The position numbers and the translations under genes were made by a program. 44,398 bases of DNA, from IMG/VR virus record IMGVR_UViG_3300045988_090220, positions 1 to 44,398 of that record, one strand, 5' to 3'. Shown here in pieces: positions 10,905-40,610 of this stretch. A model generated the notes under the pieces. That model saw nothing but the letters and a program-made list of their open reading frames with translations, was not told the DNA's origin and did no database searches. Origin of the DNA: a virus. The number at the start of each line of letters is the position of its first letter. The first letter of the stretch is position 1.

Positions 10905-11222
10905 TCACTCAGCGGGTTCCTCGGACTCAGCGGGTTCCTCGGACTCAGCGGGTTCCTCGGACTCAGCGGGTTCCTCAGTTTTCTTGCGGGACTTCTTGAT
11001 AACAGGAATGGGATTTTTCTCGGACAGGTTGAACTTGGTAATGATTTCCTCGCGGGTGAGGGCTACGGGGTTGTCGAGAGTATCAACAACTACCGTACCC
11101 ATCACCACAGAGGTGCTTTCCAGTTCACGCCGAGTAATCACCTTGTCCTTTGCGGTAAAGCCTACGTTACGGAAGTGATCTCCCTCCCGCACATACACTT
11201 TTCCGTCAGAAACATAGAACAT
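10905..11222 (-). CDS. Small head-associated protein with C-terminal (EEPAES)x4 repeat
   Basis: 105-aa ORF immediately downstream of the major capsid gene. The C-terminus is encoded by an 18-bp x4 tandem repeat. Confidence 0.6.
   Translation of the reverse strand: MFYVSDGKVYVREGDHFRNVGFTAKDKVITRRELESTSVVMGTVVVDTLDNPVALTREEIITKFNLSEKNPIPVIKKSRKKTEEPAESEEPAESEEPAESEEPAE
10908..10979. repeat. 18-bp tandem repeat x4 (ctcagcgggttcctcgga), coding
   Basis: Four consecutive units read directly from the sequence. The last unit diverges at its end. Confidence 0.9.
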
Positions 11223-16483: not shown

Positions 16484-17329
16484 TCACTCCACCACCAATT
16501 CACAGTCAATCCAGCTACCAGCACTCAAACATTCACCAACAAAGGTAATGGTATCTCCGACCTTGACTGTTTTAAGATTTTCTTCTTGCTCTTTCTCGAA
16601 CTCGGCGTAGAAAATAACGATTGTATTTCCTACCGTCTTCTCCAAGGTCAAGGTGGCTCCGCCTGTCAGATTAAACAATCCATCATTGGTCATGCCATCA
16701 ATTTTAGCAGTCACTCGATAGCGATTGTTTTTATACAGGTCATCGGCAACCAGTTCGTTTTCCTTATATGCCTTATAGATTTCCTCGAAAGTAGCAGTTC
16801 CTACCGTATCTTCTTCCTTCTCAGTTTCCTGTTTAGGGACAGTTTCGGACTTCTCGCTATTTTCTTGATTATCATTGGACGTTGTTTCTTTGGAGGGTTC
16901 GTTTAATTTTTTGAGAACTTCGGTTTCCTCGTAACCGCACCGGCTGCACCTTGTTACAAATTCACCATCACTCTCGGAGGTAGGTTTAATCCGGCTAACC
17001 TCCCGCATATCGTGTCCTAATCGTTTAATCGTCTCAGTCGTATCCCGGCCACACAAGTCACAATGATATTTTGTATATCCATCCTCTGTACAACTTGCTT
17101 CTTTCGTCTCAACGAGCCTATTCTCATGCTTGCACCATGTGGCTGGGGAGGTAAGTACACCGACTGTAATAACCGCCGCAAAGGAAATCCAAAACCACTT
17201 GAACCACTTCCATTTCGGCTTCTTTCTAATCTTTCGGATAATCCAAATCACCAAGAGAACGGGGGCGGCTATCAATTCGAGGGTGGCTATAAAGGAACAA
17301 ATGTTAGAAATTATTTGCATTTCAACCAA
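16484..17329 (-). CDS. Membrane protein with Zn-ribbon repeats and a C-terminal OB-fold (tRNA_anti-like) domain
   Basis: 281 aa. Two N-terminal hydrophobic helices, CxxxxxxxxC..CDLCG and CSRCG motifs, an acidic linker, and a C-terminus (YKENELVADDLYKNNRYRVTAKIDG...VKVGDTITFVGEC) that resembles the tRNA_anti-like OB family. Confidence 0.6.
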   Translation of the reverse strand: MVEMQIISNICSFIATLELIAAPVLLVIWIIRKIRKKPKWKWFKWFWISFAAVITVGVLTSPATWCKHENRLVETKEASCTEDGYTKYHCDLCGRDTTETIKRLGHDMREVSRIKPTSESDGEFVTRCSRCGYEETEVLKKLNEPSKETTSNDNQENSEKSETVPKQETEKEEDTVGTATFEEIYKAYKENELVADDLYKNNRYRVTAKIDGMTNDGLFNLTGGATLTLEKTVGNTIVIFYAEFEKEQEENLKTVKVGDTITFVGECLSAGSWIDCELVVE

Positions 17330-17942
17330 CCTTTCTTACTCGATCATACCATGTAGACCGACTAATGCCGAGTTCTCGACAACAGTCCGCTACGGTAATA
17401 AGACCGTCTTTTTGTTTTTGAGCGAGTTTTTCAAACTGCTCGTCATCAATCTCGGAAGCGGGTCTGCCGAACCCTCTGCCAGTCTTCACCGACACCCGCT
17501 TGCCATCGACAATCGGCATGGCGGCGATACCCTCAGCCTGCCGCTGCTTGGTCTTCTTACGCTCCTGCTCGGCAACAGCGCCAAGGACTTCAATCAGAAT
17601 GTTGTTGACCATTTCCAGCACCCATGTCTGGTCTTTGAAGTCAATCAGCGTGGTCGGAATGTCGAGGATACGGACGATCACACCCTTCTGCTTGAACCAT
17701 TCCAGTTCTCGCTTCATTTCGTCCTTGTTGCGCCCAAAGCGGTCGAACTCCTTGACGATGACTTCATCACCTTCCCGCACAATGGCCTTCAAAGCATTGT
17801 ACTGAGGACGGTCGAAGCTGCTTCCCGTGATCTTGTCGCAGTACACATTCTCGTCAGGAATATCGAACTTCTCACGGGCGACCTTGAGTTGCCGAGCAAG
17901 GTTCTGTTCCTTACTGGACACACGACCAAGGAAGTATTTCAT
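17322..17942 (-). CDS. Small serine recombinase (resolvase/invertase family)
   Basis: 206 aa. GRVSSKEQ catalytic-Ser motif, DRFGRN, AVAEQERKKTKQRQ and a C-terminal HTH (ELGISRSTWYDRV). Confidence 0.9.
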   Translation of the reverse strand: MKYFLGRVSSKEQNLARQLKVAREKFDIPDENVYCDKITGSSFDRPQYNALKAIVREGDEVIVKEFDRFGRNKDEMKRELEWFKQKGVIVRILDIPTTLIDFKDQTWVLEMVNNILIEVLGAVAEQERKKTKQRQAEGIAAMPIVDGKRVSVKTGRGFGRPASEIDDEQFEKLAQKQKDGLITVADCCRELGISRSTWYDRVRKVG

Positions 17943-17945
17943 GGT

Positions 17946-18179
17946 TCACTCCACCTCGTATCCACCGTCCGGCAGACGGGTATTGGCAGGAACAACGATG
18001 ACCTTGTAATCCATCGCTCTGAGCATAGTGGTCAGCAGGGACACGGGAATGTCCTTGACATTTTTGTTGTTCAAGCGTTCCCAAATGGTAGCGTTAGATA
18101 CCTTGAGCCTTTTTGCGAGTTCAGCGTTGGAAAGAGACTTGGAAGTCATGATCTCTTTCAGGATTTCTCGACCTCTCAT
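17946..18179 (-). CDS. XRE-type HTH DNA-binding protein
   Basis: Start MRGREILKEIM at 18179, set by the GAGGTG RBS and by the consensus promoter lying over the longer ORF start. HTH is LSNAELAKRLKVSNATIWERL. Confidence 0.75.
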   Translation of the reverse strand: MRGREILKEIMTSKSLSNAELAKRLKVSNATIWERLNNKNVKDIPVSLLTTMLRAMDYKVIVVPANTRLPDGGYEVE

Positions 18180-18197
18180 GTTTATCACCTCGGCTTT

Positions 18198-18226
18198 ATT
18201 ATACATATCAAGCGTTTTATTGTCAA
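18198..18226 (-). promoter_or_regulatory. Perfect consensus sigma70 promoter for the HTH-resolvase-membrane protein operon
   Basis: Minus strand TTGACA-17 nt-TATAAT. The spacer is made of the repeated motif CAATAAAACGCTTGA. Confidence 0.7.
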
Positions 18227-18237
18227 GCGTTTTCTTG
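18208..18237. promoter_or_regulatory. Two tandem copies of 15-mer TCAAGCGTTTT(A/C)TTG (operator- or res-like)
   Basis: Copies at 18208-18222 and 18223-18237. The same motif occurs four times at 20353-20438. Confidence 0.6.
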
Positions 18238-18521
18238 AAATTGATCTTTTTATTTTTTGCGGGTATTTTTCAGCTTACCCCGCCCTCGCTGCCGCTGGTA
18301 TATCCCCCGCCCCCGTCACCCATTCACGCCGCTCAGATCAGGCCGGAAAAGCGCAAAAAACAGGGCAGCTCTGCACCGCCCTAACACCCCCGCATTATAA
18401 CACCGCCGCAAACCCCATTAGAACGCCATACACGGCGTTTAGTATAGGCGGTAGTACCAGTATACCACCAAACCGCAAAAGCCCGTAAAACGCCCTTAAA
18501 ACGCCTTTACGGATAAAGCAT

Positions 18522-18554
18522 AAAAACAACCGCCCCGGAATAGCACCGGGGCGG
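18522..18554 (-). terminator. Rho-independent terminator of the five-gene operon
   Basis: Minus strand CCGCCCCGG-TGCTATT-CCGGGGCGG followed by TTGTTTTT, about 95 nt downstream of the stop at 18648. Confidence 0.75.
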
Positions 18555-18647
18555 CGTTCACTTATTCAATTTCAGTATTTCAATCAGGATTTGAAACGGC
18601 AGCAAAAGCAACAAAAGAATTAAATACATAAAAAAATATATCTCCTT

Positions 18648-18914
18648 TCAAGAAAATGTAAAGCGCCTTGTTTCCGTGGCTCTGGTGTACTGTGCTGCCA
18701 CTCCCGGCAACTCTCGCTTTAATGCCGTAGTATCAATGCGGGAGCTTGTAACGGCCTTATATGTGGCCTTGTGTTCCGTCCCTGTTAGCGTGTCCGTGTT
18801 CTGTTCCTGCATAATCTGCTTTAACTGGTCTTTCAGGCCGTCCACCGTGGCGGCAATCTCTTCACCCATGCGGATATACTCCGCAAGCTCTTTCATAATA
18901 CTATCAATATTCAT
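18648..18914 (-). CDS. Hypothetical protein (88 aa)
   Basis: AT-rich ORF. N-terminal coiled-coil-like helix, then KATYKAVTSSRIDTTALKRELPGVAAQYTRATETRRFTFS. No domain I can name. Confidence 0.65.
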   Translation of the reverse strand: MNIDSIMKELAEYIRMGEEIAATVDGLKDQLKQIMQEQNTDTLTGTEHKATYKAVTSSRIDTTALKRELPGVAAQYTRATETRRFTFS

Positions 18915-18926
18915 ATTGCACCCCCG

Positions 18927-19274
18927 TTAAAATACCGTATCAACAACGGTTAGAATTGTTACCCACAGATCAATATACTGTGTGCTGTATCCGGTATAAT
19001 CGCCCCTGTCAAACTCTGTTTTGCCCGTGATAACATAGCCAACTTGTTTTGCGCCCCCGTCTGATAGATCAACGAACATTTCCGACTTGTTTTTAATGGC
19101 ATTTTTGGAAATGGTGATACAGTACTTTTCTTTCACCCGTTCCCGGTAAATTTCAAGCGCATTTTCCACGCTATCCGCATCTATGCGCATATCCGAAACA
19201 ATGCCGCCGTCAATGTACCACTTTTTATTGTTGTATTCTTTCATTGTTGCCGTTGTTTTGAAAATGTAATTCAT
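18927..19274 (-). CDS. Hypothetical protein (115 aa)
   Basis: ORF in the tightly packed island operon. Confidence 0.65.
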   Translation of the reverse strand: MNYIFKTTATMKEYNNKKWYIDGGIVSDMRIDADSVENALEIYRERVKEKYCITISKNAIKNKSEMFVDLSDGGAKQVGYVITGKTEFDRGDYTGYSTQYIDLWVTILTVVDTVF

Positions 19275-19276
19275 AA

Positions 19277-19525
19277 TTAAACCCCCATTCTAATACATTC
19301 ATCAAGTGGAATTTTATACCCATGCACCCGGAAAAATGCGCTATCTTTCCCGTTTGCGGGATAGTAGATTTTGCACCGGTGGAACGCTTTACCGCCGCCC
19401 CACGCCCCGGAAACACAATAAACATAATCGTTAACGCCGTATTCAATGCCTTTAATTTCAAGGCCATTTAAGCCGCTATAATATGCAATGCTTTCCCGGC
19501 TTTCGCAATATTCCCGTTTATTCAT
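19277..19525 (-). CDS. Hypothetical protein (82 aa)
   Basis: ORF in the tightly packed island operon. Confidence 0.6.
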   Translation of the reverse strand: MNKREYCESRESIAYYSGLNGLEIKGIEYGVNDYVYCVSGAWGGGKAFHRCKIYYPANGKDSAFFRVHGYKIPLDECIRMGV

Positions 19526-19862
19526 GATTGCAAACCCCCTTTATAAAATCCCTTGCAAGGCTTTTCAGGCTTTCCCGCTGCTGTTCATAGGAAAGGCTAT
19601 AATCATAGCGGATTTTTTCGGCCTGTTCTTCCACGGCTTTCACCTGTTCATAAGTGGGGCGGATATTTCCGAAAGGGGCATACCCGGTTACAATGGCAAC
19701 CCCGCCGCCCATATCGTAAATATCAGCCGCCCACCCTTCCCGGCGTTGTGTATAGGCAACCGGGCTTTCATAATTCAAAAGATACTGTAAACTACAATAG
19801 GAAACGCAAATAATTGTGGAATAACCGGCCTTTACTGCCTTTTGCGTTGTCTTGAATTTCAT
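19518..19862 (-). CDS. Hypothetical protein (about 114 aa)
   Basis: ATG at 19862 (MKFKTTQKAVKAGY) with an AAAGGGGTG RBS. The longer form starts at a TTG inside the upstream stop region. Confidence 0.6.
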   Translation of the reverse strand: MKFKTTQKAVKAGYSTIICVSYCSLQYLLNYESPVAYTQRREGWAADIYDMGGGVAIVTGYAPFGNIRPTYEQVKAVEEQAEKIRYDYSLSYEQQRESLKSLARDFIKGVCNHE

Positions 19863-19876
19863 GTGATACACCCCTT

Positions 19877-20230
19877 TCAATAATTCACGCTGTTAGCTGC
19901 ACGGCGTTTATACATGGCTTTCAAACTTTCGGCGGGGGTCATATCCGCCGCTTTCGGCTTTTCCATTTCTACCGGCTGCGTATCCCACCACGCTTTCCCG
20001 CCGCCGTTCATATCATAGAACGAAAGAAAACTATTCACATGGCGCATTGTAGTAGCAGAATAACCGCCCCACATACGAACGAACCGCCCCGCCGCCGTAA
20101 TACGGCAAACAAAAGTATTATAGGACTGTAAAACTTTTTCGCCGTTTTCCGTTTCAATGATTTTCGCCTTTCCGTAAAAACTTTTTGCTCGATCAGAACC
20201 GCAAACGGGTAAATCAAATATCTTTTTCAT
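19877..20230 (-). CDS. Hypothetical protein (117 aa)
   Basis: First gene of the island operon (MKKIFDLPVCGSDRAKSFYGKAKIIE...YSATTMRHVNSF). Confidence 0.65.
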   Translation of the reverse strand: MKKIFDLPVCGSDRAKSFYGKAKIIETENGEKVLQSYNTFVCRITAAGRFVRMWGGYSATTMRHVNSFLSFYDMNGGGKAWWDTQPVEMEKPKAADMTPAESLKAMYKRRAANSVNY

Positions 20231-20352
20231 AAAGTAATCAGCCTTTCATAATATATTCCATTCCGTTTTCCCATTTCGGCCTTGATACGCTGAAAGCCTA
20301 TTTCACCGGCCTACATGGGAAAATGTACGGGGATTTAATTTTCAAGGTGCAA

Positions 20353-20445
20353 TCAAGTGTTTTATTGATGGTTAGAGTATATCAAGCGTTTTATTGTTTG
20401 TCAAGCGTTTTATTGATATTTTATCAAGTTTTTTATTGACGCTTG
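20353..20445. promoter_or_regulatory. Four copies of TCAAG(C/T)(G/T)TTTTATTG plus one inverted half site
   Basis: Copies at 20353-20367, 20382-20396, 20401-20415 and 20424-20438. ACGCTTG (reverse complement of CAAGCGT) at 20439-20445. Confidence 0.6.
20376..20404 (-). promoter_or_regulatory. Consensus sigma70 promoter of the five-gene island operon
   Basis: Minus strand TTGACA-17 nt-TATACT. The spacer and -35 are built from the repeated 15-mer. Confidence 0.65.
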
Positions 20446-20619
20446 CAACCGTCTGAAAAACTACACTTTTTTGCACTATACATTATAAAGGGCAAAAACA
20501 CCGCCCCGATCAGGCCGGAACCCCGGCAACGCCCACGCCGCCGCGGTGGAACCCGCCGCCCCGATCAGGCCGGGAAAAGGAAAAGCCGCCGACCCCGTGA
20601 AGAGATCGGCAGCTCTGTC

Positions 20620-20774
20620 AAAGTCGCAGACCTTCGCCGGAAAGTCGCAAAGTCGCAAAGTCGTTCGGGCGAAAGTCGTGAAAGTCGCGGGATAGTTGCA
20701 AAGTCGCTCGGCATAGTCGTAAGCCATAGTCGCAAAAGTCGTGAAAGTCGCTCAGTCCTCCGGGTCATAGTCGC
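20620..20774. repeat. Array of 13 octamers (A/T)AAGTCG(C/T), read on the plus strand
   Basis: Copies start at 20620, 20641, 20649, 20657, 20672, 20681, 20692 (variant ATAGTTGC), 20700, 20713, 20726, 20735, 20744 and 20767. The array abuts the terS stop codon (20752-20754). Confidence 0.9.
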
Positions 20775-21321
20775 TGGACGAACCAACCACATCTTCGAGG
20801 TACTTCTTCTCCAAGTCCTCGGCGGGAACCTGATTTCCGAGCTGCTGGTTGGGTGTCAACACGACCTCCTGCTTGTCCGCATAGCCCATGTTGTTCTTCA
20901 TCAGGAAGATACCGGCAACCGGATTGATCTTTCCGTTCTGCATATAGTTTTCCATCTGAGCGTTCAAAAATTGATACGCCTTTTTTAGCAAGTCACGGCT
21001 TTCGGTGGGGATATAAGCACTTTCAATGCCATTTACCCATCTCCACAAAGTCATTCTATCAATGCCAAATGCCAATGCCATACCCGCAACAGAGGGTTTC
21101 ATGTCATCTTCGGCACAAATCCGAAAGTAATTTCTAATACGCTCAGTCACAGCTTCCGGCTTGGTCATATCCACAGCAGGCCAGTCCCACATTCTCAGAT
21201 CGTGTTCAAGAAACTTCCGATTATCTCCCGGTTGAAGCTGTGCCGTACTATCAGGCCGCTTATTGCCGCCAGTACCCTTCGGTCTGCCACGACCACGCTT
21301 TTTCACAATTTCATCTGCCAT
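20752..21321 (-). CDS. terS: Terminase small subunit (gp3-packaging type)
   Basis: 189 aa. Basic N-terminus KKRGRGRPKGTGG, HTH PSVAGMALAFGIDRMTLWRWVNG, and a C-terminal NPVAGIFLMKNNMGYADKQEV motif typical of small terminases. Confidence 0.8.
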   Translation of the reverse strand: MADEIVKKRGRGRPKGTGGNKRPDSTAQLQPGDNRKFLEHDLRMWDWPAVDMTKPEAVTERIRNYFRICAEDDMKPSVAGMALAFGIDRMTLWRWVNGIESAYIPTESRDLLKKAYQFLNAQMENYMQNGKINPVAGIFLMKNNMGYADKQEVVLTPNQQLGNQVPAEDLEKKYLEDVVGSSSDYDPED

Positions 21322-21348
21322 AGTCGTTTTCTCCTTTCAAAGTCGTCA

Positions 21349-21457
21349 AGGTGATAAAGGTGAGTAATCGGGTGCATTTTCCTATAACTATTTCTATATA
21401 CGCGCGTATAAGAGAGAGTTATAGGCATTTATGCCCGATTACTCACCTAACTCACCT
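21349..21457. repeat. Palindromic MITE-like element, copy A
   Basis: Left arm AGGTGATAAAGGTGAGTAATCGGG and right arm CCCGATTACTCACCTAACTCACCT. Inner inverted repeat CCTATAAC/GTTATAGG. Perfect 14-bp central palindrome TATACGCGCGTATA (21397-21410). Both arms are identical to copy B at 42960-43067. Confidence 0.9.
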
Positions 21458-21515
21458 AAAATACGAAAAACAATTTTTCAAAACACGCCAATTTGAAAAA
21501 AGTCTTTGCAGAAAC

Positions 21516-21541
21516 ACTCACCTTTATCACCTTTATCACCT
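21516..21541. repeat. Extra inverted arm ACTCACCTTTATCACCTTTATCACCT
   Basis: Nt 21516-21532 are the perfect reverse complement of 21349-21365. TTTATCACC is duplicated. Confidence 0.85.
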
Positions 21542-21543
21542 AA

Positions 21544-21873
21544 CTACCAGTCGGCATTGATGACCACCTTGTTTCCGTGAGCGAGTGCCGTTGCCACAAC
21601 TCTCTCCACGCCGTCCCAGTTGTAGACCTCTTTTTTCACAGCGTAATCGACAAGCTGCTTTGCCTGCTCGTTGTCAAGAACCATGTCCTTACCATACCAG
21701 TCGTTCTCCTTGGTTCGCTTTTCGTAAGGAACATAGTAGCCGAGCTTTTCCAGAAAGTCGTACCAAAGCCGACCACCGCTGTTAGTACCGTCAACCTCTA
21801 CCGTATTGACGACCTCACCACAATGAGGGCAGCGGACATCTCTGCGTTCCATGACCGTAATATCAAGACCCAT
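21544..21873 (-). CDS. Hypothetical protein with CPHCG zinc-knuckle
   Basis: 109-aa ORF with a GGAGGTG RBS. It is the last gene before terS. Confidence 0.6.
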   Translation of the reverse strand: MGLDITVMERRDVRCPHCGEVVNTVEVDGTNSGGRLWYDFLEKLGYYVPYEKRTKENDWYGKDMVLDNEQAKQLVDYAVKKEVYNWDGVERVVATALAHGNKVVINADW

Positions 21874-22078
21874 TTTCCAACACCTCCTGAGCCATCTTCA
21901 CCAGTTCGACCAAATCATAGAACCGCCGAGGGTCTAAACCGGTCTGCCGCTTCACCTTGTCCAAGTGATAGAGAACCGTGTTTCTGTGTGCAAAAATAGC
22001 ACGAGCAACATCGGTGACATTCATGTTGTGATTTGCCATCGCTATGACAATGTGAGCGTCTTCCTTATTCATAGTCAT
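21863..22078 (-). CDS. PucR/CdaR-type C-terminal HTH protein (candidate late regulator)
   Basis: MTMNKEDAHIVIAMANHNMNVTDVARAIFAHRNTVLYHLDKVKRQTGLDPRRF matches the HTH_30 pattern (..HrNTl.Yrl.ki...tG.d). Confidence 0.6.
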   Translation of the reverse strand: MTMNKEDAHIVIAMANHNMNVTDVARAIFAHRNTVLYHLDKVKRQTGLDPRRFYDLVELVKMAQEVLENGS

Positions 22079-22238
22079 CTGCTCCCCCTTTGGATTGCTG
22101 TCCAAAAATATTGGCGGCGATAAAGGCTTGGGTCAAAGTCATTGCTTCCTTTGAGGATGCTCCTGCGTCAATGAGATTGCGGTAGAAATTCAAAGAAGTT
22201 TCAGCCAAAATACCAATGGCTTTTAGAAATTCATTCAT
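22065..22238 (-). CDS. Small hypothetical protein (57 aa)
   Basis: Hand-translated MNEFLKAIGILAETSLNFYRNLIDAGASSKEAMTLTQAFIAANIFGQQSKGGADDYE. ATGA overlap with the FolD-like stop. Fills an otherwise empty gap. Confidence 0.5.
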   Translation of the reverse strand: MNEFLKAIGILAETSLNFYRNLIDAGASSKEAMTLTQAFIAANIFGQQSKGGADDYE

Positions 22239-22891
22239 GCCCTATGCTCCTTTCTTGCAAAGCGGTTGAGCAACACGCTCACGGTGAGCTGACCAATCCT
22301 GTTCACATAGGGACAGTTGAAGAAGTCAGGGAGAGGGACGCTGTTGCCGAGGTCGATGACCAGATCACGGGTGTTGTAGGAAATGTCCTTCGTGATAGTC
22401 GGCGTGGCGTAGATCACCACATCACGGTTTATCGTGGCCTGTAAAAGACTCTTAGTCTTGGAGTGCGCCACCGTCACCGTTGCGTTGTTGAGAGTGAGGT
22501 ACTTTGCCAAGTTCTGAACGGCGTGACCCCGGCCTACGATGGTAATGTCCTTGGCGTGAACCAAGTCCAGCGCAAACAAAAGGGTTAAAGTCGCCTGAGA
22601 GACAGCCGACATTCCCGGCGAGTAGGAGTTATCAATGTCCACATCGGCGGAAATCTGAACGCTGGCAGGGACAGTCTCACCGTCCACGATGACTCCCTGA
22701 TAGGGAGGGGTGAAGTGAAAGGTGTGGTCGCACTCGATACCGAAAGCGTCTGCTTTGCGGTGGACTGCTTTCAGGAACACGCTGTCCTGAGAACCCAGCA
22801 GAAGCAGCTTTCCAGAAGTGGGGAGCAAGCTGGCAGTCTCTTTGTCCAGAGCGGCAGAGAGGTCGTGGATTTTTGCCATTACATCATTCAT
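22235..22891 (-). CDS. Divergent FolD-like methylene-THF dehydrogenase/cyclohydrolase
   Basis: Start MNDVMAKIHDL (22891). ITIVGRGHAVQNLAKYLTLNNATVTVAHSKTKSL...DVVIYATPT...VIDLG...IGQLTVSVLLNR aligns by eye with the FolD NAD(P)-binding domain (VVIGASNIVGRP..LLL..ATVTxxHxxT..ADLLIVAVG..VIDVG..VGPMTVA.L). Confidence 0.55.
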   Translation of the reverse strand: MNDVMAKIHDLSAALDKETASLLPTSGKLLLLGSQDSVFLKAVHRKADAFGIECDHTFHFTPPYQGVIVDGETVPASVQISADVDIDNSYSPGMSAVSQATLTLLFALDLVHAKDITIVGRGHAVQNLAKYLTLNNATVTVAHSKTKSLLQATINRDVVIYATPTITKDISYNTRDLVIDLGNSVPLPDFFNCPYVNRIGQLTVSVLLNRFARKEHRA

Positions 22892-23069
22892 AGTGCTTCT
22901 CCTTTCTTTCAAAGTCATGGAGGGAGATCATCTTCTCACGGGTGAGCTTGTCAACCACCCGCCCGATCTCCGAGTAGCCGCAAACCGCTGCCAGCCGTTC
23001 AAGGTTTCCCTTGGTCTGTGCCGTGACTACGATAGAAATACGGCGGAGGTTCTTTTTCTCAGTCTTCAT
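22884..23069 (-). CDS. Ribbon-helix-helix (CopG/Arc-like) small protein
   Basis: MKTEKKNLRRISIVVTAQTKGNLERLAAVCGYSEIGRVVDKLTREK, with a GGAGGA RBS. Only the last 61 codons of track ORF 22884-23327 are plausible. Confidence 0.5.
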   Translation of the reverse strand: MKTEKKNLRRISIVVTAQTKGNLERLAAVCGYSEIGRVVDKLTREKMISLHDFERKEKHYE

Positions 23070-23906: not shown

Positions 23907-24081
23907 GCTGACGCTCCTTCACAATACGAATTTTTCTCAGGCGTTTGCCGCACCGCTTACAGACTTCATAATTGCTCTGCCAGCGGTGAGAACCATTACG
24001 GTACTTGACCTGAATATGAACATACGGGTCTGCTGTGTGGATACCGAAGCGGCATAGGATAGAGTTACATGACCGGTTCAT
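23893..24081 (-). CDS. Small basic zinc-finger protein
   Basis: 62 aa. CNSILC...CKRCG. TAATG overlap with the helicase stop. Confidence 0.5.
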   Translation of the reverse strand: MNRSCNSILCRFGIHTADPYVHIQVKYRNGSHRWQSNYEVCKRCGKRLRKIRIVKERQHGRL

Positions 24082-25589
24082 TAGGACGCTCCTTTCAGTC
24101 TGAGGTTCTTGTAGACAGGGTAGCCCTGATACACAACCTTGCCGCCGTGCCGCTCAGGGTGAGTCTCCATGTCGGCGTTGAACCGCTTGGCGGAACAGGC
24201 GAAGTACCCGTTGGACTTGCACCAAATCTTGTAAGCGTCAAACAGAGACTTCGAGCGGGTGTTGACCCCCTCAGCCTGCTCACAGCGTTCTTCGAGGAAC
24301 TGCAAGCACAGGTCGTTGTCACGCTCGTATTGGTTGACCACCTTCCGCATGGCGGGGGACATTTTCAGACCGAACCGTTTGTACTTGAAGTATCCGGCGA
24401 CCAGCCAAGCGAAAATGCCCTGCATGGCTTCCTGCGTCTGAAACTCATTTTTCAGGTTCTTGTCCTGCTCCGCTTCGGTGAAGTGACGGTTGAACTCAAT
24501 GACCCGCACACGGTCGGAAGCGAACAGGGACTTGTCGCTGACGGTGGGAAGATCGTTGCAGGAAAGCCAAAGAGTGAACTGCGGCAGAAAGGTTGTAGCA
24601 GTCTCATAGAGATTCCGGGCCTTGATTTCTTCACCGCCCGTGAGCTGCTTGATCGTTTCCTCGTCCAGCTTGCCGTACTGATTACTCTCAGCCATCGTGA
24701 CAAACCGTTTGCCTTTCAGGGAAGCCAGCATGGGGTTCGCTGCTTCGGCGTTCTTCGACCGCTCTGCCTTGCAGATGATCGATACGGGGGACACGGAAGC
24801 ATAATCACCGAGAAGGTGATGAATTGCTGAGAGCATGGTGGACTTGCCGTTGCGGGTGGTCTTGCCGTGAAGAATAAACATACATTCCTCGTTCGCCATA
24901 CCCAGCATAGAGTACCCCAGCGCCTTTTGCAGATAGTCCGCCTTGTCTTCGTCATTACAAGTGACCTCTGCAACGAACTTCTCCCAGCGGCGACACCGTG
25001 CGTCCTGCAAGGTATAGTTGAAGTTGGTCTGCATGGTCAGGAAGTCGTGCCAGTCATGCTCTCGGAACTCCATCTTTTCGAGGTCGAAGGTGCCATTCTT
25101 GCAGTTGATAAGGTAGGGGTTTGCGTCAAACTCCGTCGAAGCGATAGGAAGCACACTGGCAGCGTCCTTCATCAGCCGGTCACGGAAGCGCCGGTCGCCC
25201 ATCTTTACGATGAACTTCATGTACTCGGTGCGGCGTTCTTCATTGGTAATCTCACCGCAGTAGAGCGCCATCAGGCGGCAGAACTCTTTGATCTTCTCTG
25301 CTACCAGTAGAGAACCCGTGTCCTTGCGCCATGCACCCTCGGAATAGGTGAACCAGCTTTTCGCTTCGGGGCAGTAGCGGGTATCATTCTTGTAGCACTC
25401 GGAGAACAGCTCCGCCATGCCGGACTCGTCCCACGAATACCCCGTGCCGCTGATCGGGTGGCTATGCTCAGGCTGTGCTTCCTTGATTTGGAACATCACA
25501 CGGGACTGAGCTTCGTCCATGATGTAACGACCGTTGGAGAGCTGGAAAAGAGTCTGTTCTTCGGGGACGGTTGTAATTTCATCAGCCAT
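24081..25589 (-). CDS. D5/P4-type primase-associated SF3 replicative helicase
   Basis: D5_N-like NPYLINCKNGTFDL. Walker A LHGKTTRNGKST. Walker B-like KRFVTMAES. The ATG at 25589 (MADEITT) follows AGGAGAG. Confidence 0.8.
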   Translation of the reverse strand: MADEITTVPEEQTLFQLSNGRYIMDEAQSRVMFQIKEAQPEHSHPISGTGYSWDESGMAELFSECYKNDTRYCPEAKSWFTYSEGAWRKDTGSLLVAEKIKEFCRLMALYCGEITNEERRTEYMKFIVKMGDRRFRDRLMKDAASVLPIASTEFDANPYLINCKNGTFDLEKMEFREHDWHDFLTMQTNFNYTLQDARCRRWEKFVAEVTCNDEDKADYLQKALGYSMLGMANEECMFILHGKTTRNGKSTMLSAIHHLLGDYASVSPVSIICKAERSKNAEAANPMLASLKGKRFVTMAESNQYGKLDEETIKQLTGGEEIKARNLYETATTFLPQFTLWLSCNDLPTVSDKSLFASDRVRVIEFNRHFTEAEQDKNLKNEFQTQEAMQGIFAWLVAGYFKYKRFGLKMSPAMRKVVNQYERDNDLCLQFLEERCEQAEGVNTRSKSLFDAYKIWCKSNGYFACSAKRFNADMETHPERHGGKVVYQGYPVYKNLRLKGAS

Positions 25590-25899
25590 TTTCAGCACTC
25601 TCCTTTGCGAACTTTTTCAATGGTCGAAGGTCGGCTCTGACCCTCCTAATGTATTTCTCTACGATGGACTCAACCTCGTAGTAGGTGACGGGGTTGACCA
25701 CAGAGCGGTCAAAGGCTCGTGCGATCTCATTGACTTCCCGTGTGCGGTCGATTTCGTTGTGGTAGCTGACTGCAAACTGCTGACCGTTTCTCATGGCAAC
25801 CGTGAGAACAAAGGGGTATTCCGCTCGTTGACCTTTACTGGTTGAGATAGTCACAATGTCTGCGACATTGAGAAGGGTTCCATTGAAATTGTAAAGCAT
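25582..25899 (-). CDS. Hypothetical protein (105 aa)
   Basis: ORF with a GAAAGGAAG RBS and an 8-nt overlap with the helicase start. Confidence 0.6.
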   Translation of the reverse strand: MLYNFNGTLLNVADIVTISTSKGQRAEYPFVLTVAMRNGQQFAVSYHNEIDRTREVNEIARAFDRSVVNPVTYYEVESIVEKYIRRVRADLRPLKKFAKESAENG

Positions 25900-25903
25900 G
25901 AGG

Positions 25904-26047
25904 TCACTTCCTTTCCTTCATCGCTCTCGCCAATACCAAAATGGCACACTTCTGAGAGTCTTCGTCCCACCATGCACATAACTCGTGGCAATAATACCCT
26001 TCATCTATTTTAGGATTTAACGGGCATACCTTGTTCTTAATCTCCAT
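25904..26047 (-). CDS. Small Cys-rich protein (47 aa)
   Basis: Hand-translated MEIKNKVCPLNPKIDEGYYCHELCAWWDEDSQKCAILVLARAMKERK. Overlaps the MazF-like stop by 11 nt and ends 4 nt before the next start. Confidence 0.45.
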   Translation of the reverse strand: MEIKNKVCPLNPKIDEGYYCHELCAWWDEDSQKCAILVLARAMKERK

Positions 26048-26399
26048 CGTCTACACCCCCCCCATAAAAGAAAGCGTTCTTCAAAGCGGTGTCCACATGA
26101 CGCATGATCTCAGGCGGCAGAGTGCAGATGTATTCCCAATCATCGGACACATCTACAACACGCACCTGTTCACACTCAACCATGCTCGGCTGTAAAGACC
26201 CCCAAGTGACAGCCACATGGGTCGGCAGTTCGAGCCGCTTGATTTTAGTGGTCAGGGGAACGACAATGCTGGTGGAAGAAAACTGATTGCCGACATTGTT
26301 TTGCACAACCACCCACGGACGCTTACCAGCCTGAATATGACTGTTGGCAAGCATGGGAACATCAATGATGACGACATCGCCACGCTGATAAGGTTTCAT
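26037..26399 (-). CDS. MazF/PemK-family toxin-like endoribonuclease
   Basis: 120 aa. RGDVVIIDVP...GKRPWVVVQNN...SIVVPLTTKIKRLELPTHVAV...SMVECEQVRVVD follows the PemK/MazF pattern (G.v..v.f....E..k.RP.vVvs......v.v.piTs......p.hv.i....S.v...qir.id). Confidence 0.7.
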   Translation of the reverse strand: MKPYQRGDVVIIDVPMLANSHIQAGKRPWVVVQNNVGNQFSSTSIVVPLTTKIKRLELPTHVAVTWGSLQPSMVECEQVRVVDVSDDWEYICTLPPEIMRHVDTALKNAFFYGGGVDDGD

Positions 26400-26401: not shown

Positions 26402-27184
26402 TTACCTCCTGTATCTGGTCACGCTGTTGACAATCAACTCAACTTCTGACTGCGGGAGAGGGGGCTTGCAAGCCTGCTGATTGGCGTACAACAGCTCTTT
26501 GTAAATCTCTGCTTTGGTGTATCCTTGGTTATGGAGCTGACCCGCCAGAGAAGTCAGGCTGAGGTTCCGGCTTCCCGGTGTGATAGGCGGGTATTCAGGC
26601 TTCAAATGCAGTTTGCCGTTTTCAGGGCGGCGATAGATGGGGGAATAGATACGCTGAGGAGCAACCGTATCTGAACTACTTTCTTTCGGTGTGTCGGGAA
26701 AATACTTCTCGACCACATAGTCAATCGCTGACTGGTTTTCAACGATCTCGGAGAAGATCAGAACCTTGCCGGTCATGATGAAGTACCGATTGCTCTTGTA
26801 AATCTCCACGGCGGCACGGTTGTTCTTGCCCTTGAAGGGCAGCTTTCCACGAACGAGAATGTGAACCCCCCTCCCGCTTCTGGACTTTTCCGTGTAGGAC
26901 TGACAATGACCGATAATGTCAGCCGCCAGCGGGTTTAGAAGCCCATCAGTAAAGCCATCGTCAATGTCGATACCTACGACCCCTGTATCGTGAAATACAT
27001 AGCCAAGACCGTCATAGTAGCCGTGCTGGACATTGTGTTCAGCGTCAATGTAATTCGACCATGTATCAGGATTAGAGGAAGAAGCTGCCTTTCTCACGGT
27101 GGCCTGCATGGGAACCTTTGACCCGTCCCACACATTGACCCATGCCTTTTCCGCTCGGAGTTCGGCGGGTATATTCTCATACAT
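26402..27184 (-). CDS. AEP-superfamily bifunctional primase-polymerase (prim-pol)
   Basis: Start MYENIPAEL (27184) after GAGGTGG. DxD motif GIDIDDG and SRSGRGVHIL motif. The C-terminus looks PriCT-like. Confidence 0.7.
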   Translation of the reverse strand: MYENIPAELRAEKAWVNVWDGSKVPMQATVRKAASSSNPDTWSNYIDAEHNVQHGYYDGLGYVFHDTGVVGIDIDDGFTDGLLNPLAADIIGHCQSYTEKSRSGRGVHILVRGKLPFKGKNNRAAVEIYKSNRYFIMTGKVLIFSEIVENQSAIDYVVEKYFPDTPKESSSDTVAPQRIYSPIYRRPENGKLHLKPEYPPITPGSRNLSLTSLAGQLHNQGYTKAEIYKELLYANQQACKPPLPQSEVELIVNSVTRYRR

Positions 27185-27194
27185 TGTTGCCACC

Positions 27195-27746
27195 TCAGCT
27201 TTCATATGGACTGGGTAAACTCCAATCCCATTCGCTCCCGCCACGATACTCATTGCGAAAGTGATTTTGATATCCGTCACCTGAAAAGTACAAATAATCT
27301 TGTGGCAATACCCGTCCAACGTTTATTTGCCCTTGTTTTTCAGCGAAGTATCTGGATAGAACATCTTCGCATAGAGCTTTCAAACTCTCATCCACAGGGT
27401 TGTCCTTGCTGTAACCAACGAAATGTCCGGGTATCGTTACCGCAGCTACAATAGAGCCGTTCCCGTACCCCGCTTCGACATGATTTAGTGCGCACCATAT
27501 AACCGCTGCTTTTTCTGTATCGGACGCAACACTACCAGCCTCACTCCATAGCATTTTCGCCAGTACAATCACTTCTTCGTCTGTCCACGGCTGAGGTGTC
27601 ACCTCCGGCTCTGGCGCCGGGGTGACTACCTCTACCTCCTCGACAACGGGCGAGGGTTCTTCCATCTCAACCGTGGGCATTTTCCAGCAGAGAACGGTGA
27701 TAATGATGACGAACCATAGGGAGATTGTAATTGTTAGCTCTCGCAA
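27195..27746 (-). CDS. Membrane-anchored SleB-like cell wall hydrolase
   Basis: N-terminal TM helix (ITISLWFVIIITVLCW), a Pro/Glu-rich linker, then VLAKMLWSEAGSVASDTEKAAVIWCALNHV resembling the Hydrolase_2 (SleB) family. Confidence 0.55.
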   Translation of the reverse strand: MRELTITISLWFVIIITVLCWKMPTVEMEEPSPVVEEVEVVTPAPEPEVTPQPWTDEEVIVLAKMLWSEAGSVASDTEKAAVIWCALNHVEAGYGNGSIVAAVTIPGHFVGYSKDNPVDESLKALCEDVLSRYFAEKQGQINVGRVLPQDYLYFSGDGYQNHFRNEYRGGSEWDWSLPSPYES

Positions 27747-28039: not shown

Positions 28040-28681
28040 TCATGACTCAATATCCTCGAAGAACACAGGGTAAGCCATTTTGAATTTGTTGAGTAATTCA
28101 CTGGCAACCACTCGCATATCAGGGTGAGCCGCAGGAGCGCAACGGAGTTTACAGAAATGCCGCCATTCTCTGAGGTCGGCGGTCATAACCACCTCGGTTT
28201 TCAGGCTGTTCGGAAGGACAGATCGAGCTTCCTGCGGGGTGCAACCCTCATTCAGCAGATCGAAGTAGGCGACCTCAGCGTGTTCACACGACCGCTTCCA
28301 GATGTGGTAGGTCGAGTCGGTCTTGGTGAAGGTCGAGGGACAAATAACGGTGATCTCGCCGCCGAAGCCCTCCTTGCCGTAATTGCAATACCGAGTGGAC
28401 TCCTGACAGAACGCCGCCAGACGGTGGCGAACGATCTCGTGGCTCACGCCCCGGTCACAGATGAAGCGGACAGTGAGAGAGCCATGCTCAATGACAGCTT
28501 CGTGACCCCGCTTGATAATGCCCCGGACGAACTTCTCTGCACTTCCGTCCGTGATTTTGTCCTCGGACTTATAGCAAGTGCGCCCTGCGGCTTCGATGGT
28601 GGTCAGAAGGGTCTTATAATCGGGAGCGTTGATAAGCTCCACAGAAGGTTCAATGATTTTCACTTTCAGACTCCCTTTCAT
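28040..28681 (-). CDS. thyX: Flavin-dependent thymidylate synthase ThyX
   Basis: ThyX signature RHRLAAFCQESTRY (RHRxxSxxxxSxR-like), plus HEAVIEHGS and SLKTEVVMTADLREWRHF. The start is uncertain: ATG at 28681, or GTG at 28663 with an AAGGGAG RBS. Confidence 0.85.
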   Translation of the reverse strand: MKGSLKVKIIEPSVELINAPDYKTLLTTIEAAGRTCYKSEDKITDGSAEKFVRGIIKRGHEAVIEHGSLTVRFICDRGVSHEIVRHRLAAFCQESTRYCNYGKEGFGGEITVICPSTFTKTDSTYHIWKRSCEHAEVAYFDLLNEGCTPQEARSVLPNSLKTEVVMTADLREWRHFCKLRCAPAAHPDMRVVASELLNKFKMAYPVFFEDIES

Positions 28682-29024
28682 ACCAAGGTTTGAAGTTGAT
28701 AATCTGTTCATAGAGGTTATTTGCTCTGCCATCGAAACAGATTGTACGGTCATCAACATGAACGATGGAGGGAACTTTTCTTGCTTGAATTTGCACCATC
28801 GGGAACCCGTAGTGTTTCAGCCATTCAGCAATCGCCGCCTGTCCCTCAAAGGACTCCGCACGAGAAGAACAGATGACCACACATAAACCATCGCTTATGA
28901 GTTGTTCAATGACCTCTTTAATCCCTTCTACGGGAGGATCGGGGATAACAGCGGCACCCTTCCACCCGCTTCGGTAGGAATGAATTACGCCATCGAAATC
29001 GAAAGAAACCGTTGGAATATACAT
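28650..29024 (-). CDS. HAD-superfamily phosphatase (nucleotidase-like)
   Basis: 124 aa. N-terminal DxDxV motif (SFDFDGVIHS), VVICSSR and VDDR motifs. Confidence 0.6.
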   Translation of the reverse strand: MYIPTVSFDFDGVIHSYRSGWKGAAVIPDPPVEGIKEVIEQLISDGLCVVICSSRAESFEGQAAIAEWLKHYGFPMVQIQARKVPSIVHVDDRTICFDGRANNLYEQIINFKPWYERESESENH

Positions 29025-32936: not shown

Positions 32937-33426
32937 CGTAATACCTCCATTCAATATTGTGAGTTTGTTTGATAATCCCTCTACAACACTTTGCAATCTG
33001 ACTGTGAGCAATACCGGAAGCATCAGAAGCAGCTTTTACGCCATCGAATGTCTTTGTTGACCCGTCAGGGAATAGTCCGATTACAGCCCTACGACATTTC
33101 GATTTGCTCATGCGCTGATTGCGAGTGCCGTGGTTATCGTTTTCCTTGTGTGTTGCCCATTCAAGGTTAGAAACGGCGTTGTTGCGCTTATTCTCGTCCT
33201 TGTGATTGACTGTCGGTTTGTTGTAGGGATTAGAAATAAATGCCAGAGCGACCAGCCGATGAATCGTGAAACACTTAGAGTGACCATGGACGGTGAGAGT
33301 TACAACCTCATATCCATAACGGTCAATTTTCGGTTTCAATTCCCGTTCCTTTCGGAGAGAGTAGACAGTACCTCTGTCACTCACGGCGTAGTAGCCCTCA
33401 TACCCGGGAACGGGTTTCCAGCTCAC
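32914..33426 (-). CDS. HNH homing endonuclease (NUMOD4 + HNH_3 type)
   Basis: WKPVPGYEGYYAVSDRGTVYS (NUMOD4), HRLVALAF..VNHKDENKRNNAVSNLEW.THKEN (HNH) and a C-terminal IENR-like HTH. GTG start after AGGAGGGG. Confidence 0.85.
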   Translation of the reverse strand: MSWKPVPGYEGYYAVSDRGTVYSLRKERELKPKIDRYGYEVVTLTVHGHSKCFTIHRLVALAFISNPYNKPTVNHKDENKRNNAVSNLEWATHKENDNHGTRNQRMSKSKCRRAVIGLFPDGSTKTFDGVKAASDASGIAHSQIAKCCRGIIKQTHNIEWRYYDEVRRMA

Positions 33427-40585: not shown

Positions 40586-40610
40586 TCTGTCTACCTCCTT
40601 TCGATGTTTT

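Follow-up and report, generated by a model that had tools for sequence, protein, structure and literature searches.

A temperate siphovirus of gut Oscillospiraceae, analyzed here over its whole available sequence (IMG/VR record IMGVR_UViG_3300045988_090220; 44,398 nucleotides, hereafter the window), possesses a circular genome of 44,257 bp, positions 1-141 being the same as 44258-44398, in which a 109-bp palindromic element occurs twice, as copies A and B. What are these elements for, and which protein, if any, reads them? They are real, and they are the only long palindromes of the phage genome: a scan of the window for palindromes of ~108 bp reports 36 of 54 pairs for A and 33 of 54 for B, nothing else above 32, and peak scores of 27-29 in shuffled controls (n=20). 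The palindromes belong to a family of conserved gut-phage elements, whose most likely role is that of replication origins to which the primase-helicase of the phage itself binds. The parts on which this reading is built are the following.

21349-21457: copy A palindrome, 109 bp, with AGGTGA at 21349 and 21358 (plus strand) and at 21443 and 21452 (minus strand)
42960-43068: copy B palindrome, 109 bp, with AGGTGA iterons at 42960 and 42969 (plus strand) and at 43054 and 43063 (minus strand)
21373-21433: interior of copy A, holding CCTATAAC, GTTATAGG and the central TATACGCGCGTATA
21381-21388: CCTATAAC of copy A
21397-21410: central TATACGCGCGTATA of copy A
21418-21425: GTTATAGG of copy A
21458-21517: AT-rich spacer 3' of copy A, GC 0.28
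21518-21541, minus strand: three extra tandem iterons AGGTGATAA, oriented like the copy A arm next to them
21300-21543: conserved A block, comprising the extra iterons, the spacer, the palindrome, two CGACTWT units, the RBS and the start of terS (~8 codons)

What a preliminary description had stated on the sequence of the two copies, their arms, inner boxes and central palindrome holds in every point. The 24-bp arm AGGTGATAAAGGTGAGTAATCGGG is exact at 21349 and 42960 on the plus strand and recurs with 3 mismatches at 21434-21457 and 43045-43068 on the minus strand, i.e. four matches in the genome against 0 expected from 100 shuffles. The arms of A and B are 100% identical, while their interiors are only about 75-86% alike. 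In both copies, each arm is made of two AGGTGA hexamers with a period of 9 bp, and the arms point towards each other across an AT-rich interior (GC 0.33 in A and 0.30 in B, as compared with 0.51 for the genome), which places two iterons on the plus strand and two on the minus strand, likewise in the palindrome-bearing variant lineages described below. A consistent lack of complementarity marks the 3-nt spacers that separate the hexamers and the 8 nt that border the arms. The segment 21516-21532, previously reported as a further 17-bp arm, in reality consists of the three tandem 9-bp AGGTGATAA units listed above. Copy A therefore has seven iterons, four in the palindrome and three past a 58-bp AT-rich spacer, and copy B has four; the pattern AGGTGAKWWAGGTGA returns 6 matches against 0.01 expected. 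The spacer is a candidate DNA-unwinding region, and the window's replication module does not contain any other cluster of iterons with an AT-rich segment.

Copy A is located 27 bp upstream of the terS ATG, whereas copy B abuts the endolysin stop codon and lies between it and the int terminator; in both cases a long run of genes transcribed from one strand has its 3' end there, and the arcs between them measure 21,611 and 22,646 bp. The GC skew differs between the two arcs, an observation confounded by transcription strand and gene content and given no weight. The view that the copies exactly bracket the late operon is valid for the window's phage group, but in the wider family the second copy is found elsewhere, in tandem, 3-5 kb off, or within the lysis cassette. 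Copies are repeatedly found within or adjoining the lysis cassette, and also adjacent to moron cassettes on the reverse strand. The conserved unit at A is ~240 bp long (21300-21541) rather than 109 bp, with a mean pairwise column identity of 0.96-1.00 versus 0.23-0.85 in the coding flanks, and its AT-rich spacer is 98% conserved among 62 distinct relatives. Similarity falls sharply at both edges of this block, B-type copies have unrelated flanks from phage to phage, and half-elements occur in new combinations that are joined at the centre. Metagenome assemblies are broken by such repeats, which also mark mosaic junctions, so that knowledge of them is of use in annotating gut viromes. A degenerate arm scan of IMG/VR returned the same loci and no added diversity among the matches listed, and scans with the TGTAGAG and TAGGGGGT arms of two variant lineages gave mostly single chance matches. 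The IMG/VR loci with a single arm are not half-sites: each is a whole element whose second arm has a single mismatch. Phage MT835537 has late genes in common with the window phage; no helicase or primase homolog and no such palindrome were found in the 37.7 kb available.

The candidate reader and the recombination proteins that come into play below are encoded as follows.

24081-25598, minus strand: P4-family primase-helicase (D5_N / DUF5906 / Pox_D5), the proposed iteron reader
24081-24371, minus strand: C-terminal 96 residues of this helicase (about 410-505), a predicted winged helix and its fastest-evolving part
26402-27319, minus strand: PriCT_1 primase-associated protein of the same replication module
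31884-33023, minus strand: YqaJ-type 5'-3' exonuclease, recombination-dependent replication toolkit
33429-34184, minus strand: ERF-family single-strand annealing protein, recombination-dependent replication toolkit
39497-39901, minus strand: Hjc-like Holliday-junction resolvase, a candidate for processing forks at a second site with bound initiator, on the SPP1 model

A DNA polymerase also belongs to the replication module, together with the P4-family helicase and the PriCT protein, and no gp38-type replisome organiser, DnaB-type helicase or loader was found among the large ORFs of the window. The best solved relative of the helicase is SaPI5 PriRep5 (PDB 7OLA, E 5e-13), a modest sequence similarity in which the alignment enters the C-terminal domain. 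Homologs of the helicase number roughly 1,400. The model of the full-length helicase being too poor (pLDDT 43), the C-terminal domain was modelled alone, which yielded a winged helix (pLDDT 83). The best match of this model is the RFX-DBD 1DP7 (E 7e-4, probability 1.0), and it also matches the D5-type PrimPol C-terminal domain and Orc1/Cdc6 bound to origin DNA. P4 alpha, the prototype of the family, exhibits a winged-helix origin-binding domain at the same position (PMC2777425). In the reading that we favour, the elements would be iteron-type replication-origin modules, with their iterons recognised by the winged helix that ends the P4/PriRep-family primase-helicase of the phage itself.

Comparison of helicase lineages points in this direction. 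In ten of them a palindrome of 106-109 bp is built on one common plan, although eight iteron sequences are in use: AGGTGA in the window and L269, TAGTGA in L270, AAGTGA in L276, AAAGTG in L273, GGTAGTT in L272 and L278, GTAGAYGA in L271, TAGGGGGT in L137 and TGTAGAG in L135. Most palindrome-bearing relatives have two copies with that lineage's iteron in common, and copies from the same genome are alike in their iterons and diverged in their interiors (the window's A and B, L135, L270, L271 and L273), as expected if a genome-encoded reader constrains the iterons alone. The palindrome starts 9 bp past the helicase stop codon in L135, 45 bp in L137, 32 bp in L278 and 3 bp in L272, where nothing else separates the helicase stop from the terS start. 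Phages of the window's group have the element 0.9-3.7 kb downstream of the helicase gene with mosaic small genes in between, and the AGGTGA element accompanies a 98-100% identical helicase in 71 of the 71 loci, a search made with a helicase alignment that kept only relatives at this level of identity and is of use as a test of co-occurrence. Among all copy-A loci that reach the helicase gene, the protein is 95-99% identical. L269, whose helicase is 86% identical, retains AGGTGA as well as the three extra iterons and the spacer, and has lost the GTAATCGGG flank, while helicases of at most 83% identity come with different iterons or none. The C-terminal domain is the most divergent part of the helicase, and the helix SAKRFNADME accompanies RGTGA-type iterons in four of five lineages. 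The neighbouring genes behave differently: terS is 55-70% identical beside an element with at most 2 mismatches in 109 bp, and the repressor is 33-40% identical or not detected. Iteron type tracks the helicase and not terS, terL, the repressor or the adjacent HTH genes; the covariation is not exclusive, since terS and terL diverge across lineages together with the helicase and the comparison discriminates only partly.

Known origins offer a close precedent. Those of the Staphylococcus aureus pathogenicity islands (SaPIs) consist of 6-12 short penta- or hexanucleotide iterons around an AT-rich centre and are read by Rep/PriRep (PMC9371898). The present elements likewise combine hexanucleotide iterons, an AT-rich centre, at least two oppositely directed iterons per side and lineage-specific iteron sequences, the proposed reader being an SF3/D5-type helicase with a C-terminal winged helix, predicted here, and in L135, L137, L272 and L278 the element also directly follows the helicase gene. 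They differ from a SaPI origin in that the window's copy is displaced from the helicase gene by the distance given above for its group, the host element is a temperate siphovirus and not a satellite island, and the module is compact, a near-palindrome of 106-109 bp whose inner boxes are conserved, present in at least two copies per genome. P4 alpha itself recognises short iterons in ori and crr, two cis regions that lie a few kb from each other. It belongs to the same primase-helicase family, NCBI giving a homolog the name 'phage/plasmid primase, P4 family', but it carries a DnaG-type primase domain, whereas the PriCT_1 protein is encoded here by a separate gene. The P4 iterons and their layout also differ from those of the window, crr being two direct 120-bp repeats and not a palindrome.

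The presence of two copies finds its best parallel in SPP1, which has two origins of similar organisation served by one initiator, with oriR located in the late region beside morons (PMC6316719). Both phages are Firmicutes siphoviruses of roughly 44 kb with an SPP1-type portal, both have two separated sites in which repeats accompany an AT-rich segment, the second one in the late region next to morons, and both encode a Holliday-junction resolvase, a 5'-3' exonuclease and a single-strand annealing protein. In contrast, SPP1 relies on the gp38 initiator with a DnaB-type helicase and a loader, where the window phage has a P4-family SF3 helicase; moreover, SPP1 oriL resides inside gene 38, and the SPP1 repeats are direct whereas those described here form a palindrome. 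In SPP1, the resolvase, exonuclease and annealing protein have been implicated in restart after a stall at the bound second origin (PMC6316719). By analogy, there is about an even chance that A is the main origin and B a second initiator-bound site similar to SPP1 oriR. Copy A, with seven iterons, an extra AT-rich spacer and a position at the end of the replication module, is the likely primary origin. Copy B, across the circle from A, may act as a secondary origin or, as has been put forward for SPP1 oriR, as a fork-stalling site with bound initiator, and a fork stalled there would switch to recombination-dependent concatemer synthesis, which the Hjc-like resolvase, the YqaJ exonuclease and the ERF annealing protein could carry out.

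The binding of the helicase to the iterons, the start of replication at them and the role of B are what we infer from analogy and from about 13 helicase lineages, and several observations speak against an origin. Copies A and B lie 2.6 kb and more than 17 kb, respectively, from the helicase gene, and the four iterons of B are below the SaPI range of 6-12, into which A falls. No palindrome was found within 10 kb on either side of the helicase gene in L139, L275 and L277. The recognition-helix sequence of L271 is that of the AGGTGA group, yet its iteron is different, and L278 has two adjacent palindromes with different iterons and a single helicase gene, where a second reader may exist. The proposal also does not predict the copies by the lysis cassette and the reverse-strand moron cassettes, and a hairpin or a cruciform would be maintained just as well when both arms change in concert.

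If the elements are indeed origins, they would make replication accessible from sequence in the temperate phages of human-gut Oscillospiraceae, a large group on which almost no work exists, with a recognisable origin module and, as candidate initiator, a self-loading helicase of the P4/PriRep family. They would point to C-terminal residues that may set iteron specificity and supply matched initiator/iteron variants for studying how origin specificity evolves. The SaPI-type combination of self-loading helicase and origin architecture would be extended from satellites to full phages, and the window phage would be the second siphovirus, after SPP1, with two initiator-bound origin copies.

Among the other explanations, the elements might be operators or upstream sites for a lineage-specific regulator of the late and lysis genes, functioning as activator sites or roadblocks, or else insulators, which we consider unlikely. 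Several lineages do have copies where the packaging genes begin and within or next to the lysis cassette, a near-consensus sigma-70 promoter is found about 30-40 bp past the element in L135, L270 and L271, and small HTH genes are often located just upstream. The preliminary description had, as one possibility, viewed the copies as protein-binding sites, which is supported in kind, the arms being iterons, and had put forward as binders the PucR-type HTH protein (21863-22105) and the 109-aa protein (21544-21873) encoded nearby. These two genes are absent from several phages with an unchanged copy-A block, an XRE-type HTH gene replacing both in L041 and L115; PucR is thus an unlikely binding partner, since its gene is missing beside an identical element. 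More generally, no regulator co-occurs with the element, the repressor included, and the elements are probably not operators of a neighbouring regulator. There is no room for a promoter between copy A and terS, neither an intrinsic terminator nor a sigma-70 promoter was found in either copy, a result that concerns equally the cruciform or terminator insulators raised in the preliminary description, and the window's copy B has no downstream gene. The copies that directly follow the helicase stop codon suit an origin better.

Alternatively, the palindromes could be recombination elements at module boundaries, either cruciforms cut by the resolvase or attC-like recombinase sites, that promote cassette gain and module exchange. 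This is a distinctly unlikely primary function, although much of the mosaicism would suit it: the reassortment of half-elements with a central joint, the break of similarity at the A block edges, the unrelated flanks of B-type copies, the pairs of copies that flank a segment with a reverse-strand cassette in L135, L270 and L273, and the presence of genes for the Hjc-like resolvase and for serine recombinases. The earlier suggestion of module-exchange hot spots is in line with these observations, but such exchange is probably secondary. Neither a cruciform nor a crossover site needs tandem hexamers with a 9-bp period or additional unpaired iterons, about half of the related phages lack the small serine recombinase, the hybrids can be explained by ordinary gene conversion between copies with common arms, box and centre, and any essential cis element should have mosaic edges around it. 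Gene conversion likewise accounts for the hybrids without half-genome circles formed by recombination of A with B, an idea that we discarded. A combined reading, in which origin-derived palindromes serve a dual purpose and also capture cassettes and shuffle modules at boundaries, seems to us no more probable than recombination elements proper. Helicase bound to secondary copies would stall forks, the resulting breaks would feed recombination-dependent replication, and foreign cassettes such as morons, lysis genes and FtsK-like cassettes on the reverse strand would enter preferentially at these sites.

That the elements are packaging signals, with AGGTGA bound by the terminase (terS or terL product), a pac or cos site next to terS and B as an auxiliary site, is very unlikely. 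The position of copy A immediately upstream of terS resembles that of SPP1 pac, the conserved block extends into the first terS codons, and terS is of the P22 gp3 type. However, the identity of terS varies between 55 and 94% while the adjoining element is unchanged, the terL of L272 is unrelated (35% identical) while the element architecture is the same, and in L135 and L137 the copy adjoins the helicase gene and not terS. A different iteron system, CGACTWT, with 12+2 copies flanking terS, is a more natural pac candidate, and a second pac half a genome away would be harmful.

A role in RNA, as a long hairpin that would be an RNase III site, an mRNA stabiliser or a terminator at operon ends, appears more doubtful still. 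Predicted hairpins reach -47 to -56 kcal/mol (z -9 to -11), both copies lie at the 3' ends of long transcription units, the arms change in concert between lineages, and AGGUGA resembles a Shine-Dalgarno sequence. On the other hand, neither strand of A or B folds consistently better, no G-U signature is present, the hexamer spacers and the stretches beside the arms fail to pair, and a hairpin has no use for direct repeats inside the arms or for additional unpaired iterons; the element matches no Rfam family, and no U-tract follows the hairpin. The central TATACGCGCGTATA resembles the N15 telO core, but a protelomerase (tel) site was rejected, as neither a protelomerase nor a tyrosine recombinase was found among the ORFs scanned.

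Lastly, a miniature inverted-repeat transposable element spread among phages, which the 24-bp terminal inverted repeats, the constant length of 109-110 bp and the different contexts would suit, is already largely refuted and hardly credible, since there is no target-site duplication (flanks gtcgtca / aaaatac for A and acattt / tactgt for B) and no transposase gene was found in the window genome, only 7 loci, all beside phage genes, were detected in 185,579 species' genomes, and the positions are few and conserved, with lineage-specific iterons common to the copies within a genome. Correia, RUP and ERIC elements are similar in being about 100-150 bp long and intergenic with terminal inverted repeats; unlike these, the present element is not dispersed in host genomes, lacks a target duplication and occupies two fixed positions per phage genome, and its arms are lineage-varying tandem iterons. 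Copy B is located where the attP of the serine integrase would be looked for, but it is not attP either: four integrated prophages and ARAGORN analysis place the crossover ~100 bp off, within the last ~30 codons of int. The homology between phage and prophage ends at ...CGTCCAATGGTGGA, at about 42852-42866 of the window, the bacterial side at the crossover leads to the 3' end of a tmRNA (ssrA) or tRNA-Ala gene, and B is intact within the prophages.

The window represents a circular genome of 44,257 bp, because bases 1-141 recur at 44258-44398, and its genes lie on the minus strand nearly throughout. The preliminary description had called terS, a PucR-type HTH protein, an integrase, a repressor and an endolysin, all of which are borne out, as are the positions that it gave for the inner boxes and central TATACGCGCGTATA of copy A, one of two palindromic elements. 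The features are as follows.

20752-21321, terS
21349-21457, copy A, 109 bp
21863-22105, PucR-type HTH protein
24081-25598, minus strand, P4-family primase-helicase (D5_N, DUF5906, Pox_D5)
40794-41243, repressor
41280-42932, large serine integrase
42960-43068, copy B, 109 bp
43068-43874, endolysin

Four matches to the 24-bp arm AGGTGATAAAGGTGAGTAATCGGG are present in the window, two exact ones on the plus strand and two on the minus strand that bear 3 mismatches, the chance expectation being 0. At this size, a palindrome scan of the window reports A, with 36 of 54 pairs, and B, with 33 of 54, and no others, against maxima of 27-29 in shuffles. The arms of A and B are identical, while their interiors are ~75-86% alike. 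Each arm comprises two AGGTGA hexamers with a 9-bp period, after which comes GTAATCGGG. Past a 58-bp AT-rich spacer, at 21518-21541, there are three additional AGGTGATAA units in the orientation of the nearer arm, so that A has seven iterons and B four. The GC content is 0.33 in the interior of A, 0.30 in that of B, and 0.28 in the A spacer, as compared with 0.51 for the genome. The 3-nt inter-hexamer spacers and the 8-nt stretches adjoining the arms are non-complementary between both arms, and the central run of the element alternates pyrimidines and purines in every case.

The arm core is found in at least 119 IMG/VR stretches, where it nearly always forms an inverted pair at a distance of 76 bp. 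Roughly 75 of 115 copies are directly upstream of a terS homolog, ~10 lie between a serine integrase and an endolysin, and ~29 follow another lysis-region gene pair, directly before a 136-aa gene and the gene of a 316-aa SH3-domain protein; at least 7 contigs possess both a terS-proximal and a lysis-end copy. Among the genomes of 185,579 species, the arm returns only 7 stretches, all from gut Clostridia, mostly Oscillospiraceae, and every one beside phage genes (Dysosmobacter segnis BX15 has both copies); the element is thus not a dispersed host MITE. The intergenic block 21300-21541 (extra iterons, spacer, palindrome, RBS, and the initial ~8 codons of terS) is 96-100% conserved across 62 distinct relatives, as compared with 23-85% for the coding flanks. 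The core genes of this phage group are conserved to the same level, with 96-100% identity for the helicase in 47 element-anchored loci and 85-99% for terL, and the genes in between are mosaic. Copy A therefore stands as a conserved island amid variable segments. In some related loci (L093, L111, L052, L088, L102), an additional ORF of 53-71 aa is inserted between copy A and terS, precisely where terS begins, and reuses the conserved AAAGGAGAAAACGACTATG cassette of ribosome-binding site and start.

Regarding the protein that reads the iterons, the neighbours put forward initially, the PucR HTH protein and a 109-aa gene product, are both missing from several loci with an unchanged A block; an XRE-type HTH gene takes their place in L041 and L115. 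TerS is 55-94% identical beside an element with at most 2 mismatches in 109 bp, and the repressor is 33-40% identical or not detected. By contrast, the primase-helicase is 95-99% identical in every copy-A locus reaching the gene. In a separate helicase-anchored set, the AGGTGA element lies 0.9-3.7 kb after the helicase gene in 71 of the 71 loci with enough downstream DNA. The best solved relative of the helicase is 7OLA (E 5e-13), PriRep5 of SaPI5, a self-loading initiator-helicase. The 96 C-terminal residues (CTD) of the phage helicase are confidently predicted to form a winged helix (pLDDT 83), and this model matches best the RFX DNA-binding domain (probability 1.0), then the CTD of a D5-type PrimPol and Orc1/Cdc6 bound to origin DNA. 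In P4 alpha, a winged-helix domain that binds the origin occupies the same place (PMC2777425). A MazF/PemK-like toxin gene (26037-26399) is located between the primase and helicase genes, and the early region encodes a FolD-like protein (THF dehydrogenase/cyclohydrolase C-terminal, 22235-22918) and ThyX (28040-28759).

By analogy with characterized replicons, we give about even odds to the elements being origin modules bound by the helicase CTD, which would read the iterons of both, copy A acting as the main origin and copy B as a second initiator-bound site; four rival readings are each considered less likely. In SaPI5, the C-terminal winged helix of PriRep5 binds penta- or hexanucleotide iterons, and the origin, immediately downstream of rep, comprises 6-12 iterons round an AT-rich centre, with at least two on each side in opposite directions (PMC9371898). 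This description fits the 109-bp element except for its position. Phage SPP1 provides a close precedent for the two sites: its two origins, similarly organized with repeats and an AT-rich unwinding region, are bound by one initiator, and oriR lies in the late region, adjoining morons, where the bound initiator is proposed to stall the fork, which would trigger concatemer synthesis via a HJ resolvase, a 5'-3' exonuclease, and an SSAP (PMC6316719). Genes for an Hjc-like resolvase, a YqaJ exonuclease, and an ERF protein are present in the window. There are earlier examples of iteron origins, of two-origin phages, and of P4/SaPI-type self-loading helicases; what is new is the compact palindromic form, duplicated within a phage genome with lineage-specific iterons, its distribution over a large group of phages from gut Oscillospiraceae, and, in the phage group of the window, the presence of one copy at each end of the late operon. 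A literature search aimed at the SaPI, P4, and SPP1 precedents, rather than at the element, returned no description of this compact palindrome.

Contigs with helicase homologs of 68-87% identity share a common palindrome design of 106-109 bp: every arm has two iterons (9-bp period), there is a T-tract with a CTATAA-like box, and the interior is made up of a CT-rich part, the centre, and an AG-rich part. The iterons vary between lineages.

Palindromes in the helicase lineages (contig; helicase identity to the window; iteron; location)
L269; 86%; AGGTGA; upstream of terS, 3 extra iterons and spacer kept, GTAATCGGG lost
L270; 80%; TAGTGA; upstream of terS, second copy at 3.6 kb distance
L276; 76%; AAGTGA; behind reverse-strand cassette
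L137; 76%; TAGGGGGT; helicase stop + 45 bp
L271; 74%; GTAGAYGA; 2 tandem copies upstream of terS
L272; 71%; GGTAGTT; sole content between helicase stop and terS start
L273; 70%; AAAGTG; upstream of terS, second set ~5 kb off
L278; 69%; GGTAGTT and AGTGTCT; 2 adjacent palindromes, first at helicase stop + 32 bp
L135; 68%; TGTAGAG; helicase stop + 9 bp, second copy 2.9 kb off

Copies in the same genome have common iterons and diverged interiors. The CTD is the most divergent part of the helicase (53-81% identity versus 70-91% for the core), and SAKRFNADME is the sequence of its third helix in four lineages whose iterons are of the RGTGA type; the helix differs in the TAGGGGGT, TGTAGAG, and GGTAGTT lineages. 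The terL of L272 is unrelated (35% identical), yet the element design is the same and the helicase is homologous. MT835537 has the late genes in common with the window, and its available 37.7 kb contain neither a helicase/primase homolog nor such a palindrome, even after the endolysin. L271 exhibits the recognition-helix sequence of the AGGTGA group with a different iteron, L278 has two iteron types next to a single helicase gene, the L139, L275, and L277 helicase lineages lack a palindrome in the 10 kb to each side, and other proteins diverge between lineages as well. Of note, the L278 prophage additionally encodes a Phage_rep_org_N replisome organiser, and this gene contains a repeat cluster of its own (GTGACGGTGACGTTACG...; L278 7337-7445). 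L278 thus seems to possess a pair of initiator systems, and this may be connected with the presence of two palindromes that differ in their iterons. A contig met by a chance TGTAGAG-pattern match, IMGVR_UViG_3300008255_000285 (L148 / L179), harbours two palindrome copies of TGTAGAGTA units with a 9-bp period, ~3 kb apart, and an array of at least 5 further TGTAGAGTA units, and therefore the design may extend beyond this phage group. CATGAW repeats adjoin promoters near the palindrome or its expected place (L135 12557-12612 and 12940-12975; L139 12590-12616), and in L139, which is devoid of arms, they are next to an interior-like CTTTCTCTTAGTAGTAGATATATAGAGAGG.

Regulation or recombination at module borders would fit two placements of the elements: copies are found repeatedly within the lysis cassette or next to it (copy B, those before the 136-aa and SH3-domain protein genes, and that of L274) and flank reverse-strand cassettes, and the origin model predicts neither placement. 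Concerted change of both arms would keep a hairpin intact as well; however, three features point to protein binding, namely hexamers in tandem, extra iterons that are unpaired, and spacers with consistent mismatches. The following relatives carry, closely behind terS or the replication module, a reverse-strand cassette with an FtsK/SpoIIIE-like ATPase, which in L135 and L273 lies between two palindrome copies.

L135 11078-12461, reverse strand
L273 17188-21101, reverse strand
L276 13426-16278, reverse strand
L277 12721-14369, reverse strand
L278 13383-15404, reverse strand

In L274, a phage of the TAGTGA lineage, a reverse-transcriptase gene (RVT_1, 7975-8721) adjoins the lysis cassette and may belong to a diversity-generating retroelement.

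Copy B was also considered as attP and rejected by comparing the free phage with four integrated prophages: homology stops at ...CGTCCAATGGTGGA (window ~42852-42866), ~100 bp from B and within the last ~30 codons of int, and copy B is intact within the prophages. The bacterial side of the junction is the 3' end of tmRNA (ssrA) in L122 and L123, and tRNA-Ala in L128.

Window 42845-42950, attP region
L122 2753-3171, attP region
L123 367-781, attP region
L128 5538-5684, attP region

The attP itself falls inside the serine integrase gene. A replacement for the 3' end (...TGGTGGA) is supplied by the phage, along with a bidirectional terminator (42918-42945), and integration should therefore alter the integrase C-terminus.

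The window holds further repeats and cassettes. Directly after the terS stop codon, 12 sense-oriented CGACTWT heptamers are followed by an intrinsic terminator (20590-20773), and another 2 units are situated between copy A and the ATG of terS (21320-21345). Such an array (8-14 copies) follows full-length terS in nearly all relatives, regardless of the terS allele; this iteron system is separate from the palindromes and may represent pac / a terminase-binding site. The 4.4 kb that separate terS from terL contain two moron-like cassettes (16484-20440), present or absent depending on the relative. Palindromic TCAAGCGTTTTxTTGA repeats overlap the near-consensus sigma-70 promoter of each cassette (TTGACA-N17-TATACT near 20380-20410 and TTGACA-N17-TATAAT near 18198-18226), and the genes of a small serine resolvase/invertase (17322-17942) and of a Sie-like OB-fold protein (16484-17329) belong to the second. 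A perfect 20-nt inverted repeat, TTGTAAGCAACAACAACAAG / CTTGTTGTTGTTGCTTACAA (40610-40629 and 40748-40767, 118 bp apart), in the repressor-proximal region may be part of the genetic switch. Lastly, an 18-bp unit, ACTCAGCGGGTTCCTCGG, forms 3.9 mismatch-free repeats at 10907-10976, inside the structural gene region.
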